Source of the DNA: an uncultured bacterium
GTDB lineage: Bacteria > Abyssobacteria > SURF-5
NCBI GenBank assembly: GCA_964607485.1
Contig: CAZSKP010000008.1
Span: 1-64,000 of the forward strand
Direction: 5' to 3'
DNA: 64,000 bases
The position numbers and the translations under genes are program-made. Of this stretch, positions 26,728 through 35,459 are shown piece after piece (positions within the stretch are counted from its first letter, which is position 1; each line of letters begins with the position of its first letter). The notes beneath the pieces are model-generated. The model was not told the origin of the DNA and did no database searches. It saw only the letters and a program-made list of their open reading frames with translations.

Positions 26728-27960
26728 ATGTCTGTCATCACCATTTTCAGCGCGTCACACTGCCGGGGGGACGAAATCGCCGCGAAAGTGGCCGAAACGC
26801 TTGGCTACGGCCGCATTGGCGACGAGATGCTTGACTGGGCTGCTCGGGAGTTTGATGTGTCTCGTGAGAAACTCCTCCGCGCCATGCACGGCGGCGGCTC
26901 GGTGCTTGATAAATTGGGCCAGGACAAAGAGCGGAGCGTGGCCTGCATCAGGGCGGCGATTGCCGAGGGCGTGAAGGGCGACAACGTCGTCTATCACGGA
27001 TTCGCCGGGCATCTCCTGCCGAGGGACATCGCCCATGTGCTGAAAGTATGCCTCGTGGCCAATCGCGACTACAGGGTCGCGCTCGCCGCCGAGAGCGAGG
27101 GTGTGTCGAAAAAGAGCGCCCTGAAGACAATCAGGAAAGACGATGACGAGCGCAAGAAATGGACGCAGTACCTCTTCGACCTCGGGCCGTGGGACAAGAG
27201 TCTCTACGACATCAAGATTCCGATGCACACCACGTCCGTAGAGGATGCGGTGAAAATCATCTGTGAAAACGTCCAAAAAGAGCCCGTCAAGACGACGCCG
27301 AAATCGCAGAAGGCGATGGACGACTTCGTGTTCGCCTCGAAGGTCAACGTCGCCCTTGTCGAGCGCGGCCACGACGTCGAAGTGTCTTCGGACGACGGGA
27401 ACATCACGATTCTGATAAACAAGTACACGATGCGGCTGGAACATCTGAAGAAAGAGCTGAGCGACATCGCCCAGGCCGTGCCGGGCGTGAAGGGTACGGA
27501 AGTGCGTCCGGGACCGAAATACAAGCGGCCTGCCATATATCCGGGAATGGACTTCGAGCTGCCCTCGAAGGTGCTCCTGGTGGACGACGAACGGGAGTTT
27601 GTGCAGACCCTGTCGGAACGTCTGCAGATGCGGGATTTGAGCACCGCCGTGGTTTATAACGGCGAGGAGGCGCTCTCCTACATCAAGGAAGACGAGCCGG
27701 AGGTCATGATTCTGGACTTGAGGATGCCCGGAATCGACGGCGTCGAGGTTCTCAGGCGCGTCAAGAAGAGCCACCCCAGCGTGGAGGTCATCATCCTGAC
27801 CGGTCACGGCACGGAAAAGGACGAAGAGTTGACGCGCGAGCTGGGAGCGTTTGCCTACCTGGAGAAGCCGGTGGAGATTGACAAGCTTGCCAAGACGGTG
27901 AAAGAGGCCTATGAAAAGATAAGAAGAGAAAAGGCCGAAAGGCAGCGTGGAAACGACTGA
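26728..27960 (+). CDS. Response regulator with N-terminal cytidylate-kinase-like domain and C-terminal REC
   Basis: The N-terminus resembles the cytidylate kinase-like family with a degenerate P-loop; VLLVDDE..ILDLRMPG..LTGHG..KP at the C-terminus. Confidence 0.82.
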   Translation: MSVITIFSASHCRGDEIAAKVAETLGYGRIGDEMLDWAAREFDVSREKLLRAMHGGGSVLDKLGQDKERSVACIRAAIAEGVKGDNVVYHGFAGHLLPRDIAHVLKVCLVANRDYRVALAAESEGVSKKSALKTIRKDDDERKKWTQYLFDLGPWDKSLYDIKIPMHTTSVEDAVKIICENVQKEPVKTTPKSQKAMDDFVFASKVNVALVERGHDVEVSSDDGNITILINKYTMRLEHLKKELSDIAQAVPGVKGTEVRPGPKYKRPAIYPGMDFELPSKVLLVDDEREFVQTLSERLQMRDLSTAVVYNGEEALSYIKEDEPEVMILDLRMPGIDGVEVLRRVKKSHPSVEVIILTGHGTEKDEELTRELGAFAYLEKPVEIDKLAKTVKEAYEKIRREKAERQRGND

Positions 27961-29713
27961 CACAAAAAGCCCTGAGCCGAAAGGTTTTTGGAGCTCTCTG
28001 GTTCTGTCCCTCCGCAAGCTTACGCCCGCCGGCTGGAAAATCGGAGCCGGCGAGAGAAGAAAGCTGTCCCGCTACAATCGGCTGTGGAGATTCACGGTCA
28101 TCCTCACCGCCGGCGTGTCACTGACCCCGCTCGTCGTGATGACCGTCTTCGACTACTACTCGAATCGGCAGGCCTTCAAGCAGGAGACGATTCGCCCCAT
28201 CCTCCGCCTCACATCCACGACCAAGCGGTCGCTGGAATTCTTCCTCGAAGAGCGCTGGTCGGCGCTGGACTTCATCATCCACGATAATCCTTTCGTCGAG
28301 CTGTCCGACCAGGAAAAACTCAGGGTCATATTCAAGAATATGAGGAGGTCGTTCGGCGGCTTTGTGGACGTGGGCCTCATCGACTCGACGGGCATGCAGA
28401 GGTCGTATGTCGGCCCCTACGAGCTTATGGGCAAGAACTATCAGGGACAGGACTGGTTTCACGAGGTCAGCCTGAGGGGCGTGTATGTCAGCGACGTCTT
28501 CATGGGGTACCGAAAATTTCCCCATTTCGTGATAGCGGTCAAGTACGAAAAGGACGACGGAGACTTCTACGTGCTTCGGGCAACCATCGATACCGAAGTC
28601 TTGGACCGACAGATTCTCTCGCTTGGGCTCAGGCCGTCGAGCGACGCCTTTATTATCAACCGGAAGGGAGTCCTGCAGACACCCTCGCAGATTTATGGAA
28701 ACGTTCTGGAGACCGTTCCCATACCCGTGCCCCCCTTCTCCGAAAATGCGGAAGTGCAGGAGATACGCGACCGGCAGGGGAAGGTGTACGTATTGGGATA
28801 TGCGTATATTAACCGCTCACCCTTCATTTTGGTGGTGATGAAAGAACCGGGCACGTTGATGGAGAACTGGTTCACCTTGAGGCGCAAGCTGGTGGGATTT
28901 CTCATACTCAGCATAGCAGTCATCGTGCTGCTGATAATGGGAACCTCGTCCTATCTCGTCTCTCGCATCCGGGAGGCCGACCTCAGGCAGGCCGAGGCTC
29001 TGCATAGCGTTCAGTACACGAGCAAGATGGCCTCCATCGGACGACTCGCCGCCGGCGTGGCCCATGAAGTCAACAATCCCCTTGCCATCATCAACGAGAA
29101 AGCCGGCCTGGCGAAGGACCTCATCTCTCTCTCGCAAGACTTCCCTCAAAAAGAAAAGTTCTCGAAGCTGCTCGAATCCATTCAGGCGTCCGTCGAACGC
29201 TGCAGCACCATCACTCACCGCCTGCTGGGCTTTGCCAAACGGATGGACGTGCACGTTGAGACCATCGACCTCGAAGTCCTCATCAATGAGGTGCTGGGCT
29301 TCTTGGAAAAGGAGGCCGGCTACCGGAACATAGCGATAGATGTTCATGCCTGCGACGGTCTGCCTTCAATCGAAAGCGACCGCGGACAGCTCCAGCAGGT
29401 GTTCTTGAACATCATCAATAACGCCATCGAAGAACTGGAGGGCGGCGGCCAGGTGGACATCTCGCTCGAAAAAGAGGATGCCGGCAAGGTGAAGGTCACC
29501 ATCACGGACAACGGGCGGGGCATCCCCGAGGAGCACCTGAAGAACATCTTTGAGCCCTTCTTCACCACCAAGAAAGATTACGGAACCGGGTTGGGCCTGT
29601 CGATAACCTATGGCATCGTGGAAAAGCTCGGGGGCACTATCAGCGTGAAGAGCGAGGTGGGTCGTGGGACCAGCTTCGCCGTCACGTTGCCGGTCAGGAA
29701 ATCCTTACTCTAG
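27947..29713 (+). CDS. Membrane sensor histidine kinase (Cache-type sensor)
   Basis: Two TM segments, AHEVNNPL, DNGRGI and GTGLGLS. Confidence 0.92.
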   Translation: METTDTKSPEPKGFWSSLVLSLRKLTPAGWKIGAGERRKLSRYNRLWRFTVILTAGVSLTPLVVMTVFDYYSNRQAFKQETIRPILRLTSTTKRSLEFFLEERWSALDFIIHDNPFVELSDQEKLRVIFKNMRRSFGGFVDVGLIDSTGMQRSYVGPYELMGKNYQGQDWFHEVSLRGVYVSDVFMGYRKFPHFVIAVKYEKDDGDFYVLRATIDTEVLDRQILSLGLRPSSDAFIINRKGVLQTPSQIYGNVLETVPIPVPPFSENAEVQEIRDRQGKVYVLGYAYINRSPFILVVMKEPGTLMENWFTLRRKLVGFLILSIAVIVLLIMGTSSYLVSRIREADLRQAEALHSVQYTSKMASIGRLAAGVAHEVNNPLAIINEKAGLAKDLISLSQDFPQKEKFSKLLESIQASVERCSTITHRLLGFAKRMDVHVETIDLEVLINEVLGFLEKEAGYRNIAIDVHACDGLPSIESDRGQLQQVFLNIINNAIEELEGGGQVDISLEKEDAGKVKVTITDNGRGIPEEHLKNIFEPFFTTKKDYGTGLGLSITYGIVEKLGGTISVKSEVGRGTSFAVTLPVRKSLL

Positions 29714-29722
29714 GAGCGAGAC

Positions 29723-30088
29723 ATGGGCACGTTGAGAGTCTTGATTGTCGACGACGAAGAGGAACTGGTTTCCACCCTGACGGAACGTCTGGCGCTCAGG
29801 GACATCGACGCCGACGGAGCCATCACCGGAGCCGAGGCGCTTGAGCGCGTACAGGAAAAAGAGTACGGTGTGGTGGTGTTGGACGTCAAGATGCCGGGAA
29901 TAGACGGGTTGGAAGTGATGAAAAAGATTCGCGCGATGCGCCCGAAGGTGCAGGTTATCCTTCTCACAGGGCGTGGGTCTGAGAAGGAGAGCCAGACAGG
30001 CATCGACGAGGGTGCCTTCGACTATCTTGTGAAACCCATCGACATCGAAGACCTGATAAAGAAAATGAGGGAAGCCGTGGGCGAGTGA
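29723..30088 (+). CDS. Single-domain response regulator
   Basis: VDDE, DVKMPG and KP. Confidence 0.9.
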   Translation: MGTLRVLIVDDEEELVSTLTERLALRDIDADGAITGAEALERVQEKEYGVVVLDVKMPGIDGLEVMKKIRAMRPKVQVILLTGRGSEKESQTGIDEGAFDYLVKPIDIEDLIKKMREAVGE

Positions 30089-30103
30089 AGGAGAAGGCTG
30101 CGC

Positions 30104-30778
30104 ATGGATGAACGGGAAAACCGCCTGTTGCGGGAGAAAGGATTGTCGTTCTTCGGGGTTGTCACGGCCAGCCTTTCACATGAAATCAACAACGTGATAG
30201 CCATCATCGGCGAGCTTTCCGGGCTCTTGGACGACCTCCTCCTGGGCGCTCAAGAGGGACGCCCGCCGGATAGCCAAAAGCTGAAGGACCTCTCCGAGAG
30301 AATCACCGCTCAGGTGAAAAAGGGGGAGGGCATAATCAAGCGGCTCAACCGTTTTGCCCACAGCATTGACGAACCGGTCAAGAGCTTCGACCTGACCGAA
30401 CTCCTGAAAGAGATAAGCGCCATAGCTCAGCGCTTTGCGTTCTTGAAAGGGGTGAGCCTCGAAACCCAGTCGGCGGAAGGACCGATGAACGTAGTGGGCG
30501 ACCCTTTCAGTCTCCAGCAGGCTATTTTCATCTGCATCGAGCTTGCCCTGGCCGCGTCGGAAAAGAGCGGAGCCGTCACCGTCACACTCGACAAGGCGCA
30601 ATCGGGAGCAACCATCGCGATAACGGGCGCTCCGCTCGTGAGAACTGAGGCCGTCGATTCAAAGCTGTCCTTCCTCTCCATCCTGATAGAAGAACTGGGG
30701 GGCAAAGTGGAGGCTGCCACCGCCGGCGATAAGCATTCATTGACTCTCTTCGTTCCTGAGTCGATCGACAGGCGCTGA
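30104..30778 (+). CDS. Sensor-less histidine-kinase-like protein with degenerate ATPase domain
   Basis: H-box SHEINN is present, but N, G1 and G2 boxes are not recognisable. Confidence 0.75.
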   Translation: MDERENRLLREKGLSFFGVVTASLSHEINNVIAIIGELSGLLDDLLLGAQEGRPPDSQKLKDLSERITAQVKKGEGIIKRLNRFAHSIDEPVKSFDLTELLKEISAIAQRFAFLKGVSLETQSAEGPMNVVGDPFSLQQAIFICIELALAASEKSGAVTVTLDKAQSGATIAITGAPLVRTEAVDSKLSFLSILIEELGGKVEAATAGDKHSLTLFVPESIDRR

Positions 30779-30804
30779 CCGACTCGATGCCAAGGAGGTT
30801 TCCC

Positions 30805-31236
30805 ATGCCGGACGAAAAGATATTGCTCGTGGACGACGAGGAGGAATTCACCCGCATCCTGTCCGAGAGAATGAATGCGAGAGGAGTTTCCGTTGTCACC
30901 GCCAAGAGCGGCCCCGACGCCCTCGAAAAGGCGCAGAAAGAAAGGTTCGACGCGATCATCCTGGATATGCTCATGCCGGGAATGGACGGCATCGAGACGC
31001 TCAAGCGCCTTCGCGAGATCAATCCCGATTTTCAGATAATCATGCTCACGGGCCACGCGACGCTGCAGAAGGGGATCGAAGCGGTGAAGCTGGGGGCGAT
31101 GGACTTCTTGGAGAAGCCGGCCGACATACAGCAGCTCGTGGAGAAGATAAAAGAGGCAAAGGTCAAGACGATGATTTTAGTGGAAAAAGAGACCGAGGAA
31201 AAAATCCGGAAGATCCTGAAATCCAAAGGTTGGTGA
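30805..31236 (+). CDS. Single-domain response regulator
   Basis: LVDDE, DMLMPG, LTGHA and EKP. Confidence 0.9.
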   Translation: MPDEKILLVDDEEEFTRILSERMNARGVSVVTAKSGPDALEKAQKERFDAIILDMLMPGMDGIETLKRLREINPDFQIIMLTGHATLQKGIEAVKLGAMDFLEKPADIQQLVEKIKEAKVKTMILVEKETEEKIRKILKSKGW

Positions 31237-31480
31237 CATAAAACGTCGGTGGGGGTGAGGCGATGGAAGCGAAATCGACCGAAGTGATAGTGATTCGACC
31301 GGACAGGTGACCCCATGTTTCCCGCCGGTCCACGATGCGGCAGCCCATGGCCGTGACGGGAACATCGCAGCCTGAGGTTGATCGTCGCACATCCCTCCCC
31401 CGCGTTTTCTTGGCTTTTGATGACACACAGTAATCGGCATCTGCGAACGCCGCGGTGAAACGGCACATGAAAGGGACGCG

Positions 31481-33040
31481 TTGATGTCGGAAGAACGGAT
31501 TAACGAGGAGCGCATTCCGCCGGAACGCTCAGAGGCGAAGACTCGGTCGGCGAAAACCCCGCCTGCGGCCCGGCGCACATACCTGTCCGAGGCCGTCAAA
31601 CGGGTCGATTGGCGAAGGCTGCTGTTCATGTTCGGCGGCATCGCCCTGTTCTCCATCGTGTACCTTTCGCCGTCCTGGCCCGACGCCATCGACCCCGCGG
31701 GAAAGCAGTTCGAGCTCACCCGAGAGGGCAAGGCCGCCCTGGCACTGTTCCTGCTCACCGCCACGTGGTGGGTGTTCGAGGTGGTGCCCATCGGCGTGAC
31801 CAGCATCGCCGTCGGCGTGATCCAGGCTCTCTTCCTCATCCGGGATTCGCGCGTGGCCTTCAGCGACTTCATGGACCCGTCGGTCTGGTTCATATTCGGG
31901 TCGATTGTCATCGGGATGGCTTTCACGAGGACCGGCCTCACTCGGCGGATGGCGTACAAGATGCTGGCGCTCGTGGGAGAACGCACCAGCCTGATCTATC
32001 TCGGATGTTTCGTCATGACCGGGGCGCTGACGTTGATCATGGCCCACACTGCCGTGGCCGCCGCCGTGTACCCGCTGCTCATGGCCATATACACTCTCTA
32101 TCAGGAAGACGAAAAGCCCACCCGATTCGGCAAAGGATTGTTCATCGGCATGGCGTTCACCGCGGGAGCGGGCAGCATAATCACACTGCTCGGCGCGGCC
32201 CGGGGCGCGGTGGCCATAGGCTTCTTCAAAGACATGGCCGGGCGCGAGATCTCCTTCTTCGAGCTGTCCTACTACATGTTCCCCGTCGGATGGACGATGA
32301 TTCTGCTCCTCTGGGGATTCTTCATGATTTTTTTCAAGCCGGAGAAGAAGACCATCCCCGGCCTGCGCGAGCGGGCGAAGGCCCTCAGCGCGAGGTTGGG
32401 ACCTATCAGCCGCACCGAGATACTCACGCTGGTGATCGTGTTCTCCGCCATTGCGGTGCTGAGCCTGCGGTCGTTCATCCCGGCGCTCGACCCTCTCAAC
32501 AAGAGCGCAATCATACTCGTCACGACCGTCCTGTTTTTCCTGTTCAAAATCCTCACCATTCAGGACCTCGAGGAAATCCCCTGGAACATCATCCTGCTGT
32601 TCGGCGGCGCGATGAGCATCGGCTTCTGCCTGTGGCAGACGGGCGCAGCCAGTTGGCTCGCGGTCAAGTGGCTGGTCTTGTTCCAGGAGGCCCCGTGGTT
32701 TGTGTTCGTCATGGCCATATCCTTCTTCGTGCTTGTGATGACCAACTTCATCATGAACGTGGCCGCGATAGCCATATCCCTGCCCGTCGCGCTGGTGATA
32801 GCGGGCTACCTGAATGTGGCCCCCGAGGTGATTCTGTTCGCCTCGCTCACCACGGCGGGCATGCCTTTCGTCTTGCTGGTCGGGGCGGCGCCCAACGCCA
32901 TCGCCTACGAGAGCAAGCAGTTTACCTCGGGCGAATTCTTCATGTACGGCGTGCCTGCAAGCCTCATGCTGATGGTTGTGCTGGGTGCTTTCGTCTGGGT
33001 CATATGGCCGCTCATGGGCATGCCGATACTCGCTCAATAG
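31481..33040 (+). CDS. DASS/SLC13 family anion (sulfate/dicarboxylate) symporter
   Basis: Multiple TM segments; WWVFEVVPIGVT, TGLTRR, IPWNIILLFGG and APNAIAY. Confidence 0.88.
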   Translation: MMSEERINEERIPPERSEAKTRSAKTPPAARRTYLSEAVKRVDWRRLLFMFGGIALFSIVYLSPSWPDAIDPAGKQFELTREGKAALALFLLTATWWVFEVVPIGVTSIAVGVIQALFLIRDSRVAFSDFMDPSVWFIFGSIVIGMAFTRTGLTRRMAYKMLALVGERTSLIYLGCFVMTGALTLIMAHTAVAAAVYPLLMAIYTLYQEDEKPTRFGKGLFIGMAFTAGAGSIITLLGAARGAVAIGFFKDMAGREISFFELSYYMFPVGWTMILLLWGFFMIFFKPEKKTIPGLRERAKALSARLGPISRTEILTLVIVFSAIAVLSLRSFIPALDPLNKSAIILVTTVLFFLFKILTIQDLEEIPWNIILLFGGAMSIGFCLWQTGAASWLAVKWLVLFQEAPWFVFVMAISFFVLVMTNFIMNVAAIAISLPVALVIAGYLNVAPEVILFASLTTAGMPFVLLVGAAPNAIAYESKQFTSGEFFMYGVPASLMLMVVLGAFVWVIWPLMGMPILAQ

Positions 33041-33063
33041 GATGAGCGGCCGCGTCGAAGTAT

Positions 33064-33092
33064 TTGACTAAAGAAGTTGCAGAGACTATAAT
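33064..33092 (+). promoter_or_regulatory. Near-consensus sigma70 promoter
   Basis: TTGACT-17-TATAAT. Confidence 0.8.
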
Positions 33093-33121
33093 CGACCAAA
33101 TCATATAAGGGTGTCAGGTTT

Positions 33122-33216
33122 TTCTCCGATTCAACCCGCCTAAGGCAAGAGGCTATGGCGGTTGAACGGCAGGTGCGGATGGAAACGTCCGTGCCCCCCA
33201 TCCTCGGAAAGGAGAA
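33122..33216 (+). ncRNA. Moco/Wco RNA motif (riboswitch candidate), P3-less tungsten-cofactor type
   Basis: P1 TTCTCC/GGAGAA; CTCCGA; P2 TTCAACC(C)GCC-TAAG...TAT-GGCGGTTGAA; P4 GGTGCGGATG-GAAA-CGTCCGTGCC; P5 followed by GGAAAGGAG. Only about 5 nt lie between P2 and P4. Confidence 0.82.
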
Positions 33217-33227
33217 GACGCCAAACG

Positions 33228-33268
33228 AAAGCCGGTTCCACGCGGTTTGGGGACTGGCTTTTCTTTTT
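33228..33268 (+). terminator. Intrinsic terminator (riboswitch expression platform)
   Basis: AAAGCCGGTTCC / GGGACTGGCTTT 12-bp stem (2 GU pairs) followed by TCTTTTT, upstream of the porin start. Confidence 0.8.
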
Positions 33269-33327
33269 GGAGCGAACAGGCCCTTGTATCACATTCACCA
33301 CTTGTTTCATCAGACAGGAGGTAACGA

Positions 33328-34809
33328 ATGAAGCACGCAAAATCCGTTTTGGCGGCCCTGCTGAGTATTCCCCGGAGGCTGTTTCTAGCTGTTCCTCTCT
33401 CAGCTTGCTTATGTCTCCTCTTCGGCGTCGGTCCCGCATGGGCTGAGGAGCCGGCGACCGTCGAGGAACGGCTGCTCCGCATGGAACGGGAGATACAGAC
33501 GCTGAGGCAAAAGAACGAACGGCTCGAGCATGAGGTGAGCGCTCTCAGGCAAAAGCTGGAAGCCGGACAATGCGCGGCCGCGAAGGCCGGCGGGGAAGCT
33601 GCGACGGAGACGGCGGGCGAAACCCAACCCGTGTGCGCCGCGGAGAAGCCCGGGGAATTCAATCTCCGACTCAAGGGGGAATATAAGAACGGCTTCGCGG
33701 TTTCTTCCGAAGACGGACTGTACAAGCTCAAGCTTGGCGGACGCGTCACGACCAGGTTCATGGCATTGGACTCGGACCATCCGTCCAATGACGAGTTCTC
33801 CGTCGAGCGGGCGCGCCTGTACACCAATCTGAGCCTGCTCGACCAATATGACCTGAGAATTCAAGTCGAGTTCGCCGAGAACCCCAAGCTCAAGGACGGC
33901 TATCTCGACATCCATTACGTCCCGTGGGCCCGCTTGAAGATGGGTCAATACAAGCCTCCCTTTACGTGGGAGAATCTCGAATCGCACAAATACATCGACT
34001 TCGCCGAGCGCTCCATCGCCGTGAACAACATGCGTCTGCCGAGCCGCGACATCGGCATCATGCTCCACGGCGGATTCTGCGACGACATGATTGAATACCA
34101 GTTGGCCGTCCTCAACGGAACGGGCGAGAACAAGGGCGACGACAACGACGCGAAAGACCTCGCGGGCCGGCTCTTCGTGCAGCCGTTCCGGGGCGCGGAA
34201 GGCGGAATCTTCTCCGACCTGCATCTGGGCGTTTCCGGCACGTGGGGCGACCAGAACACGGATTACTCAAGCACTTCGTTCAAGACGACCGCCGGAACGC
34301 CGTTCGTCGATTTCGCGGCCGATACCATGCACAAGGGAAACCGCAAGCGCCTCGGAACCGAGCTCATCTGGCCCGTCGGGCCCGCCTCGCTCAAGGCGGA
34401 GTGGATGCAGATGTGGCTGGATAACTTCCAACTGGAGCCGATGAGAGAGGGCCTTCAGTTCTACGCGTGGTACGTTTCGGGAAGCTACCTTCTGACCGGT
34501 GAGACGAAACCGCTGGGCAGGGTCGTTCCCAACCACCCGTTCGACCCCTCTCAAGGCGCCTGGGGCGCGTGGGAGGTGGCGGCGCGGTACTCCGTGTTCC
34601 ATAGCGACCGCGACCTTTTCGACCTCGGAATGGCCGAAGGCACCGACCAGACCGAGGCCTTCACCGTCGGGCTCAACTGGTATCTCAACCGGTTGTTCCG
34701 GGTGACATTTAACTACGAGCACACTGAGTTCGACGACGATCTCGTCATTGACGGGAAAACCCTTGACGACGAAGATGCATTTCTCCTGCAATGCCAGCTC
34801 GAATTCTGA
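33328..34809 (+). CDS. Outer-membrane porin, OprO/OprP (phosphate-selective porin) family
   Basis: Signal peptide, N-terminal coiled coil, RARL, GQYKPPF..E, RDIG, WYVSGSYLLTGE, GAWEVAARYS, VGLNWYLN and C-terminal Phe. Confidence 0.87.
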   Translation: MKHAKSVLAALLSIPRRLFLAVPLSACLCLLFGVGPAWAEEPATVEERLLRMEREIQTLRQKNERLEHEVSALRQKLEAGQCAAAKAGGEAATETAGETQPVCAAEKPGEFNLRLKGEYKNGFAVSSEDGLYKLKLGGRVTTRFMALDSDHPSNDEFSVERARLYTNLSLLDQYDLRIQVEFAENPKLKDGYLDIHYVPWARLKMGQYKPPFTWENLESHKYIDFAERSIAVNNMRLPSRDIGIMLHGGFCDDMIEYQLAVLNGTGENKGDDNDAKDLAGRLFVQPFRGAEGGIFSDLHLGVSGTWGDQNTDYSSTSFKTTAGTPFVDFAADTMHKGNRKRLGTELIWPVGPASLKAEWMQMWLDNFQLEPMREGLQFYAWYVSGSYLLTGETKPLGRVVPNHPFDPSQGAWGAWEVAARYSVFHSDRDLFDLGMAEGTDQTEAFTVGLNWYLNRLFRVTFNYEHTEFDDDLVIDGKTLDDEDAFLLQCQLEF

Positions 34810-34846: not shown

Positions 34847-34875
34847 TTGACAAGATTTATTTCTTCCCGTAAAAT
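34847..34875 (+). promoter_or_regulatory. Sigma70 promoter
   Basis: TTGACA-17-TAAAAT. Confidence 0.7.
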
Positions 34876-34949: not shown

Positions 34950-35459
34950 ATGAAACTCATCGTCGTAAAGGGAAGCGGAACTGGCACCGAATTCAGATTG
35001 CACGATGGCATCAATATGCTCGGCCGGGACGTGACTAATCGCATCAGGCTGCTCGACACCAGGGTCTCACGCAAACATTGCAGGATACGGAAGCTGGGCC
35101 GCTCGCTGTTCCTCTTCGACCTCGGGACGAAGAACGGCACGCTCGTCAACGGCGTTTCGGTGAGCGAGCGGGAACTTGAGATAGGCGACCGCATCAAGGT
35201 GGGAAGCACGCTTCTCGAAGTTGCGGATGCGCATCATGTGCCGAAAAAAATCGACGAGAGTGCGGCGCCCGCCTCTTTCTTCCGTACCATCACGATGGCC
35301 GTCTTCGGTCAGCGGCGGAGTCAACGACCGACCGCGGTCGAGCGCGAGTTCGGGAAGTTCTTTCGGAGGCCCCGAAAATCGTTCTGGCGACCTTCCGTCG
35401 ATACCGACCCGCCCGAAGGCCGCCGCGAAACGCTGATCTCCCACTCCGACCCCGACTGA
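34950..35459 (+). CDS. FHA domain protein
   Basis: LGRD..VSRKH..DLGTKNGTLVNG..GDRIKVG. Confidence 0.88.
   Translation: MKLIVVKGSGTGTEFRLHDGINMLGRDVTNRIRLLDTRVSRKHCRIRKLGRSLFLFDLGTKNGTLVNGVSVSERELEIGDRIKVGSTLLEVADAHHVPKKIDESAAPASFFRTITMAVFGQRRSQRPTAVEREFGKFFRRPRKSFWRPSVDTDPPEGRRETLISHSDPD

Follow-up and report, generated by a model that had tools for sequence, protein, structure and literature searches.

A P3-less Moco/Tuco-class riboswitch precedes an OprO/OprP-family porin gene, a candidate tungstate channel

Layout of the riboswitch-porin unit

The window, the whole stretch of 64,000 nucleotides that was analysed, contains a single porin gene preceded by its own promoter, a riboswitch aptamer and an intrinsic terminator, and located downstream of a DASS-family symporter gene and four two-component genes (Table 1). 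A covariance-model search against Rfam identified the aptamer as a member of RF01055 (Moco/Tuco riboswitch) with an E-value of 3.5e-14 and a score well above the gathering score of 36 bits, the alignment covering model positions 1-135 and thus the entire model. It is the sole Rfam match within the window and is recovered at the same position in a whole-genome search. The RF01055 core is present, comprising P1, P2 with its CCUAAG/UAUGG internal loop, a GAAA-capped P4 and GGAAAGGAG, and core positions are invariant in all 12 leaders of the window's phylum, from which we also built our own model, R1. An earlier note made from the sequence alone had proposed a Moco-motif RNA without P3; every hallmark it named is in place and the P3 stem-loop (ca. 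model positions 59-73) is deleted in the RF01055 alignment. P3-less members of the Moco class are thought to sense the tungsten cofactor. Beyond the missing P3 stem, the host genome encodes tungsten-metabolism genes (tupABC and AOR-family), consistent with a Tuco-type RNA.

Table 1. Coordinates of features at the riboswitch-porin locus
Feature	Position	Strand	Basis or remark
dCache sensor kinase, response regulator, kinase-like protein, response regulator	27947..31236	+	conserved cluster with DASS gene and porin
DASS-family anion:sodium symporter gene, not behind riboswitch	31481..33040	+	TIGR00785, 204.8 bits; synteny with G010
Sigma-70-type promoter TTGACT-17-TATAAT	33064..33092	+	11/12 consensus positions
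RF01055 Moco/Tuco aptamer, P3 absent	33112..33230	+	Rfam 67.8 bits; R1 122.6 bits
Hallmark CTCCGA	33124-33129	+	read from sequence
Hallmark CCTAAGG	33139-33145	+	read from sequence
Hallmark TATGG	33154-33158	+	read from sequence
Hallmark GAAA loop	33182-33185	+	read from sequence
Candidate antiterminator A, 5' arm (aptamer CCCCAUCCUCG)	33196..33206	+	pairs with 33241-33252
Hallmark GGAAAGGAG	33207-33215	+	read from sequence
CCAAAC, 5' arm of competing helix of the earlier note	33221..33226	+	complementary to 33245-33250
Intrinsic terminator: hairpin 33227-33262 and U-run	33227..33268	+	folding
Terminator loop and start of its 3' arm; 3' arm common to both candidate antiterminators	33241..33252	+	
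Ribosome-binding site AGGAGG	33316..33321	+	read from sequence; 6 nt 5' of ATG
Porin gene (493 aa) with signal peptide, N-terminal helix and putative OprO/OprP-family barrel	33328..34809	+	PF07396

The near-consensus promoter claimed in the note is found and would place the transcript start at about 33099-33101. A consensus scan detected three promoter-like sites between 32900 and 35000, compared with 0.5 +/- 0.7 in shuffled sequences. The interval between aptamer and start codon holds a terminator-type expression platform, a GC-rich hairpin with a U-run. In its core, 33231-33239 pairs with 33250-33258 and CUUUUU follows the hairpin; across the phylum's 12 leaders these nine core pairs form without exception (100% of cells paired). 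The segment 33215-33272 folds with -23.9 kcal/mol (z -3.32), a value reached by 1 of 200 shuffles, so that folding bears out the intrinsic terminator of the note. The consensus terminator scan does not list it because that scan is restricted to loops of 3-8 nucleotides. Folded as a whole, the leader forms the aptamer and the terminator together, at -70.6 kcal/mol (z -2.68).

Two helices are candidate antiterminators. Antiterminator A is paired in 85.2% of cells in the 12 phylum leaders versus 42-52% when slid, a comparison biased by the fact that the helix was discovered by inspecting the very sequences then scored; in the window leader 9 of its 11 pairs form. The note had instead proposed a competing CCAAAC/GTTTGG helix. 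Its two arms are present and complementary, but their conservation is weak, with 72.3% of cells paired versus 37-59% when slid and 78 of 500 shuffles reaching the observed value. Antiterminator A is at least as good a candidate, and both show little covariation among the 12 leaders. Ligand-free folding predicts the terminator form to be more stable than the two antiterminator forms (-62.1 and -59.2 kcal/mol), and this predicted preference for termination even without ligand counts against the proposed switch.

The encoded protein aligns to positions 9-370 of the 370-position PF07396 profile (Porin_O_P) and scores 131.3 bits (cut-off 20.9), confirming the assignment to the OprO/OprP family, and is the only PF07396 protein encoded in the genome. 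Sequence comparison with OprO/OprP gives E-values of 1e-12 to 3e-10. A structure model of low confidence (mean pLDDT 57.5; other four models 34-40), used for fold look-up only, returned OprO, an OprO mutant and OprP as its top three PDB matches (E ca. 1e-15, TM 0.46-0.55).

Tungstate uptake genes and recurrence of the pairing

The genome's only other RF01055 copy precedes tupABC-moaC, genes that encode TupA (274.8 bits to NF041772), TupB, an ABC ATPase, MoaC and a MOSC-domain protein. The aptamer of this tupA leader is the closest of 11 others to the window aptamer (84.0% identity, 100/119), and the same TTGACT...TATAAT layout precedes it; the aptamer of genome G004 has 83.2% identity. AOR-type enzymes are a tungstoenzyme family, and the genome contains 11 AFOR_N (AOR-family) genes.

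In the window's small phylum the riboswitch-porin pairing is unique: 12 riboswitch matches occur in 8 of 11 genomes and only the one described here precedes a porin. None of the three other porin orthologues in the phylum has a riboswitch, one of them being co-operonic with a DASS symporter. At E <= 1e-20 a porin orthologue is absent from 8 of the 11 genomes, most of which keep riboswitch-tup, so the porin is dispensable for tungstate uptake in this lineage.

The survey of riboswitch-porin pairs suggested in the note uncovered further examples, linked to tupA, in two phyla besides that of the window. In a Desulfobacterota sample, RF01055 is found in 36 of 151 genomes (80 matches), 13 of which also encode PF07396 proteins. 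In 5 of these 36 genomes a Porin_O_P gene is immediately preceded by a P3-less RF01055 RNA, on the same strand and 312-485 nt from the porin match, where rough arithmetic from our tables gives about 0.007 pairs expected by chance. The Nitrospirota sample contains RF01055 in 25 of 151 genomes, PF07396 in 15 of the 25 and the direct pairing in 3, again with P3-less RNAs; a fourth genome shows the gene order porin-riboswitch-tupA. Because genomes within a phylum are related, the eight outside cases represent only two porin clades. A TupA-type gene follows downstream in the same direction at five of the eight loci, a riboswitch-tupA unit lies just upstream at one, and two are single-gene units like that of the window. 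One of the latter, in genome G238, is accompanied by a second riboswitch before tupA, the layout found in the window genome. At six further porin loci tupA is directly upstream without a riboswitch.

A porin tree places the nine riboswitch-linked porins together with the window's subfamily on one side of a split with 96% SH-aLRT support, and the sulfate-ABC-linked, phoB-linked and tupA-adjacent clades on the opposite side. The riboswitch-porin finding suggests that different OprO/OprP-family porins work with different oxyanion importers, those for sulfate, tungstate and phosphate. To our knowledge all porins of the family are now annotated as 'phosphate-selective', and a division by oxyanion would be useful for genome annotation. 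A group-wise comparison of conserved blocks found a GQFK.PF block common to all porin groups compared and no tungstate-specific pore residues separating riboswitch-linked from sulfate- or phoB-linked porins. Searching 163 (83 + 80) other porin loci with R1 yielded no riboswitch, the three other matches having E-values of 0.19-0.58; R1 is clade-specific and this null result is weak for distant riboswitches. In 12 loci selected for an Rfam search, among them the close orthologues and all six tupA-porin loci, the only matches were two tRNAs, and RF01055 is absent from five genomes reached via porin loci.

P3 is absent from 9 of 9 porin-linked riboswitches and the binding proteins linked to riboswitch-porin loci score as TupA, not ModA. 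Molybdate is therefore less favoured than tungstate as the candidate substrate.

Genomic setting of the porin and alternative readings

In G010, a relative from the same phylum, the genes for kinase, regulator, kinase-like protein, regulator, DASS symporter and porin are in full synteny with the window, and the porin gene starts about 30 nt after the DASS stop codon without a riboswitch. The DASS proteins of the two genomes are 83% identical and the porins 54%. Judged by this synteny, the DASS gene is the porin's ancestral neighbour, and because the cluster in G010 is riboswitch-free, the promoter-riboswitch-terminator cassette looks like an insertion between the two genes. Two further runs of the same study yielded small contigs that leave parts of the porin gene uncovered but bridge both junctions with 0 differences (X2 at 32983-33178 and 33221-33371; X3 at 32917-33067 and 33139-33306).

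This arrangement could also mean that the porin works in the outer membrane alongside the DASS symporter and two-component system and admits a different anion, for instance sulfate or a dicarboxylate, the riboswitch being a lineage-specific add-on. The riboswitch might then merely throttle a general anion pore, for example by limiting excess tungstate, or have no adaptive meaning. Besides the G010 cluster, such a role would agree with the survey, where a sulfate-binding protein follows 56 of 166 porin loci and CysT-type permease genes adjoin 39, and with a paper on Geobacter bemidjiensis that describes a sensor and regulator of the dicarboxylate type 5' of a 'phosphate-selective porin' (PMC2996986). 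However, the cassette has a strong promoter of its own, and both its aptamer and its terminator are intact. Riboswitches are also paired with porins in two further phyla, in most cases together with tupA, and no DASS gene lies beside any of 160 other surveyed porin loci. We regard the DASS partnership as unlikely, while it is the most serious of the alternatives.

Far less probable is a conventional OprP/OprO-like porin for phosphate or diphosphate that is regulated by phosphate starvation. The Pfam family name and the best solved relatives point in that direction, and because it is the only PF07396 protein in the genome the porin may also carry phosphate. Yet the neighbours include no pst or pho genes, consisting instead of the two-component system, the DASS symporter, an FHA protein and a GH1 enzyme; control is exerted through a Moco-class riboswitch, phoB-linked homologues form a separate clade, and identity to OprO/OprP in the fold alignment is only about 18%.

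The least credible explanation is that the assembly is chimeric where the riboswitch is repeated, or that the riboswitch is a decaying, functionless copy. A metagenome-assembled genome with two similar riboswitches might indeed be joined wrongly, and the pairing has no counterpart in the phylum. But both flanks are ancestral neighbours in G010, which makes a random join implausible, the contigs from the two other runs of the study agree with the assembly, and the window copy outscores the tupA copy (67.8 versus 60.3 bits) and retains its terminator.

Proposed mechanism and comparison with known systems

The reading we consider probable, with reservations, is that a cofactor-controlled OFF riboswitch acts on a single-gene porin operon, that the porin is a likely tungstate channel and that the cassette was inserted. 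Its regulatory part, the proposed control of the porin gene by the riboswitch, is well supported, while the tungstate-channel role is suggested by gene association. Transcription would begin from the cassette's promoter; read-through from the DASS gene may also occur, since no terminator is seen between that gene and the promoter. With cofactor plentiful, the P3-less aptamer would keep its 3' half, and the terminator hairpin and U-run would end the transcript ahead of the ribosome-binding site. With cofactor scarce, an alternative pairing, either antiterminator A or CCAAAC with GTTTGG, would capture the start of the terminator 3' arm and the porin would be made. We infer this OFF logic from the terminator and by analogy with E. 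coli moaA (PMC2408646). The porin, as an anion channel, would most likely pass tungstate across the outer membrane to periplasmic TupA, and the receiving TupABC importer would be under control of the genome's second, similar riboswitch. Insertion of the cassette would thereby have put an existing anion porin under tungsten-cofactor control.

More tentatively, and with somewhat less confidence than in the local reading, we suggest that part of the OprO/OprP family may be dedicated tungstate channels, forming with TupABC a complete outside-to-cytoplasm route under the Tuco riboswitch, and that a mobile cassette may have rewired a porin of a former DASS operon. If true, no earlier tungsten-specific component of the outer membrane would precede these channels, and in the window genome outer-membrane permeability would have been rewired to cofactor status.

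The outer-membrane step of molybdate and tungstate uptake is usually left as 'presumably via porins', the wording of a Campylobacter review (PMC3417520). The note knew of no characterised porin with such a role, and our literature search likewise found no publication on a riboswitch-controlled tungstate/molybdate porin. Neither Regulski et al., 2008 (PMC2408646) nor Weinberg et al., 2007, uses the word 'porin' in the main text, and 'outer membrane' is likewise absent from that of the former, whose supplementary gene-context lists could mention porins. Riboswitch-linked porins are good candidates for the outer-membrane entry route of tungstate: porins that share their regulation, and often a transcript, with tupA would give this step a named candidate, and outer-membrane channels would join the known Moco/Tuco riboswitch regulon.

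The leader resembles the P3-less 'Tuco' subclass of the Moco RNA motif as presented in the main text of Regulski et al., 2008 (PMC2408646) in its full-length match without P3 and in the tup and AOR-family genes of its organism. A terminator follows the aptamer, as it does in some Moco RNA representatives of that study, and the genome's paralogous riboswitch controls tungstate transport and pterin synthesis genes. In the window, however, the controlled gene encodes an outer-membrane porin.

OprP and OprO of Pseudomonas aeruginosa (PDB 2o4v, 4rjw) belong to the same Pfam family and are the porin's only solved relatives by sequence as well as the best fold matches of its low-confidence model. Many conserved arginine and lysine residues in the window porin fit an anion pore as in OprP/OprO. 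Unlike them, it possesses a long N-terminal helical extension and stands under riboswitch control without pst/pho context. The sole NCBIfam match, the ExtI porin of a selenite/tellurite reduction operon (NF040900), is likewise of Porin_O_P type and tied by name to a group-16 oxyanion; the window porin is not a member, since it scores 48.1 bits where the cut-off is 150 and aligns over just 88 residues.

The closest counterparts in organization are the eight outside loci (L211-L215, L218-L220), where a P3-less RF01055 RNA and a terminator-like hairpin precede a Porin_O_P gene as in the window. L218 and L220 are the single-gene units. Their porins lie on the same side of the supported tree split as the window's while being only 27-33% identical to it. 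Five of these operons include tupA, and three add GEGP dihaem and PKD/Lcl_C proteins, whereas the window porin adjoins a DASS symporter instead.

A cofactor riboswitch upstream of a porin gene

The arrangement of a riboswitch before a porin gene is confirmed at the locus. Reading the sequence directly, we found every element listed in the earlier note, from the promoter-like site through the Moco-motif hallmarks and intrinsic terminator to the porin gene. The aptamer is a significant match to the Moco/Tuco family RF01055 (gathering score 36) and the only Rfam match in the whole window. Its P3 stem-loop is deleted in the alignment, and representatives of this type have been proposed to sense the tungsten cofactor, which is still a proposal (PMC2408646). 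A consensus scan found three promoter-like sites in 2.1 kb compared with 0.5 ± 0.7 in shuffled sequences. The terminator on the plus strand is missing from the same scan because only loops of 3-8 bases are admitted, and was identified by folding. The entire leader folds as aptamer plus hairpin (-70.6 kcal/mol, z -2.68). A further promoter-like site directly follows the porin gene and precedes an FHA-domain gene; the porin is therefore read as a single-gene unit. Overall, riboswitch control of the porin is a sound reading of the window.

Features of the porin locus and of related loci
Sequence	Position	Strand	Feature	Details
Window	26728-33040		Response-regulator-containing protein, dCache kinase, regulator, kinase-like protein, regulator, DASS symporter	Kinase-like protein without Pfam match
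Window	33064-33092	+	Promoter-like TTGACT-17-TATAAT	11/12 consensus positions
Window	33112-33230	+	RF01055 aptamer	67.8 bits, E 3.5e-14, whole model covered
Window	33196-33206		Alternative helix, aptamer arm CCCCAUCCUCG
Window	33227-33262	+	Long hairpin, then U-run	-23.9 kcal/mol, z -3.32
Window	33241-33252		Alternative helix, terminator loop and 3' arm
Window	33316-33321	+	AGGAGG	Precedes porin ORF
Window	33328-34809	+	Porin ORF, 493 aa	Porin_O_P, 131.3 bits
Window	34847-34875		Promoter-like TTGACA-17-TAAAAT	11/12
Window	34950-35459		FHA-domain gene
Contig 22			Second RF01055 copy	Upstream of TupA, TupB-like permease, ABC ATPase, MoaC, MOSC-domain protein
L211	5193-7025		Riboswitch-porin unit with GEGP module
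L212	6582-8387		Riboswitch-porin unit with GEGP module
L212	2569-4599		TonB-dependent receptor	Closes the G114 gene string
L213	5703-7514		Riboswitch-porin unit with GEGP module
L213	10814-14733	-	Riboswitch, two DUF364/DUF4213 'heavy-metal chelation' proteins, ModB/WtpB-like permease, WtpC-like ATPase
L213	16059-18554	-	RF01055, Alginate_exp barrel (479 aa), ModA	40.6 bits; PF13372, 126 bits

Nine pairs of the terminator core are formed in all 12 leaders of the window's phylum, and two alternative helices could block the terminator. The CCAAAC/GTTTGG helix put forward in the earlier note pairs in 72.3% of cells versus 37-59% when slid, but 78 of 500 shuffles equal it, so that the competing helix stands as a candidate only. 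The helix between CCCCAUCCUCG and the terminator, picked by eye from the very sequences scored, is paired in 85.2% of cells versus 42-52% when slid, with almost no covariation. Forced folds of the two alternatives reach -62.1 and -59.2 kcal/mol and are less stable than the terminator form; the choice would thus have to be kinetic, and either helix could serve. From the architecture and by analogy with the E. coli moaA riboswitch, where repression requires cofactor synthesis (PMC2408646), we infer that the window riboswitch would act as an OFF switch.

Origin of the leader and tungsten genes of the genome

Among 11 genomes sampled from the window's phylum, eight contain RF01055 with 12 matches in total, whose gene context was assigned by tblastn on the loci. 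Seven matches precede tupA, a tandem pair at one gene among them; one is located at a contig end, and only that of the window lies before a porin. The remaining three, L084 (G003), L089 (G002) and L091 (G007), lie directly upstream of tupB with tupA absent within 1.5 kb on either side. Porin orthologues (E <= 1e-20) are encoded in three of the 11 genomes, namely the window genome, G004 (two copies) and G010, and no riboswitch was found at the three orthologues outside the window. G010 preserves the window's gene order, with identities of 70% for the dCache kinase, 83% for the DASS symporter and 54% for the porin; a regulator, a kinase-like protein and another regulator lie, in this order, between kinase and symporter. 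The G010 porin begins with a GTG about 30 nt past the DASS stop codon, whereas the 287 nt gap in the window contains promoter, aptamer and terminator. The window arrangement is therefore best read as a promoter-riboswitch-terminator cassette inserted between two formerly co-transcribed genes. Assembly error is an unlikely source because both flanks are ancestral neighbours and contigs from two further runs belonging to the same study, covering 32983-33178, 33221-33371, 32917-33067 and 33139-33306, show no differences to the window. The nearest match to the window aptamer is the tupA leader of the same genome (84.0%, 100/119), with that of G004 almost level at 83.2%. The cassette derives from the phylum's tup-type leader, an intragenomic origin being only a candidate.

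The window assembly (93 contigs, 97.5% complete) contains exactly two RF01055 matches, the second preceding a run of tup genes whose TupA-type member scores 274.8 bits to NF041772, under that model's strict cut-off of 400. The porin and tupA leaders share the TTGACT...TATAAT layout, the terminator stem and near-identical aptamer cores. The 4.7 Mb genome encodes 11 genes with an AOR-family N-terminal domain (AFOR_N), spread over contigs 3, 5, 7, 9, 16, 23, 24 and 48, and one modA, upstream of which the genome-wide RF01055 search found no riboswitch. The porin is its only PF07396 gene. The gene set suggests an organism that makes heavy use of tungsten and controls both the tungstate importer and the porin through its two cofactor riboswitches.

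Riboswitch-porin pairs in other phyla

The survey of riboswitch-porin pairs suggested in the earlier note recovered them in both further samples, partly together with tupA. Of 151 genomes sampled from the phylum to which a MAG titled Desulfobacterales belongs, 36 contain RF01055 (80 matches), and 13 of these genomes also encode PF07396. In five, the porin match is preceded on its own strand, at a distance of 312-485 nt, by a riboswitch; rough arithmetic from genome sizes and hit numbers gives a chance expectation of about 0.007 such cases. These riboswitches all lack P3, and each is followed by a hairpin and U-run. Of 151 genomes sampled from the phylum that includes a MAG titled Nitrospirota, 25 carry RF01055 and 15 of these PF07396; the riboswitches at the four porin loci lack P3 as well. 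G167 and G238 resemble the window, and G238 shares the window genome's layout in that a second riboswitch directly precedes tupA.

Gene order at riboswitch-porin loci
Genome	Sample	Order
G145	Desulfobacterota	riboswitch, porin, GEGP dihaem protein, small protein, TupA
G083	Desulfobacterota	tandem riboswitch, porin, GEGP dihaem protein, small protein, PKD/Lcl_C protein, TupA
G114	Desulfobacterota	riboswitch, TupA; riboswitch, porin, small protein, GEGP protein, further genes, TonB-dependent receptor
G076	Desulfobacterota	riboswitch, MoaE; then riboswitch, porin, TupA
G032	Desulfobacterota	tandem riboswitch, porin, TupA-like binding protein (PBP_like_2)
G204	Nitrospirota	riboswitch, porin, TupA, TupB
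G167, G238	Nitrospirota	riboswitch, lone porin
G186	Nitrospirota	porin, riboswitch, TupA, fused TupBC

Three Desulfobacterota loci (L211-L213) encode a GEGP-motif dihaem protein of about 600 amino acids (392-446 bits to NF041762) and a small protein, and two of these loci add a PKD/Lcl_C protein ahead of tupA. This set forms a conserved module, periplasmic or outer, with a putative role in tungsten acquisition. The Alginate_exp barrel of L213 would represent a second type of outer-membrane channel found with a molybdate-type binding protein under RF01055.

The wider porin family and the proposed tungstate channel

Homology searches gathered 166 porin loci. The largest group carries sulfate ABC transporter genes (Sbp/CysP, CysT/W) downstream (e.g. 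L062, L160); a sulfate-binding protein gene follows the porin in 56 loci, CysT-type permease genes adjoin 39 and an Rrf2 regulator lies upstream in 22 sulfate-linked loci. These members, annotated as 'phosphate-selective', resemble porins of sulfate systems. A PhoB-type regulator is found near seven porins, and a DASS gene beside no surveyed porin but that of G010. Six loci (L034, L042, L115, L117, L140, L145) have tupA directly upstream of the porin, with tupB downstream in L115 and L117, and form a separate clade; RF01055 was not found at any of them, and they represent a tup-porin linkage under other control. In an unrooted 66-row IQ-TREE phylogeny with some long branches, computed by a short search under LG+G4 with SH-aLRT as the only support measure, the riboswitch-linked porins fall into two clades. 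One (99%) unites six rows drawn from both phyla, and the other (100%) contains three Desulfobacterota rows; the window's subfamily comprises 12 rows (100%). A 96% split separates these riboswitch-linked clades and the window's subfamily from the sulfate-linked, phoB-linked and tupA-adjacent clades. A bigger FastTree gave a similar picture.

The earlier note knew of no characterised porin with such a role, and our full-text literature searches likewise found no description of a riboswitch-controlled tungstate/molybdate porin. 'Moco riboswitch' did not co-occur with porin, nor did Moco, riboswitch and tungstate with 'outer membrane'. Matches for tungstate, porin and riboswitch, Geobacter papers included, did not concern such a porin in the text available. 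Among the matches listed, none was related for tupA with porin or, judged by title, for OprP with molybdate, and 'Tuco riboswitch' concerns a Gram-positive organism. The main text of Regulski 2008 (PMC2408646) contains neither 'porin' nor 'outer membrane', and that of Weinberg 2007 does not contain 'porin'.

The comparative evidence from two other phyla lends real support to the window porin as a probable tungstate entry channel, a proposal tempered by its DASS-linked ancestry in its own lineage. By sequence, its only solved relatives are OprO and OprP, which are also the best fold matches of a low-confidence structure model.
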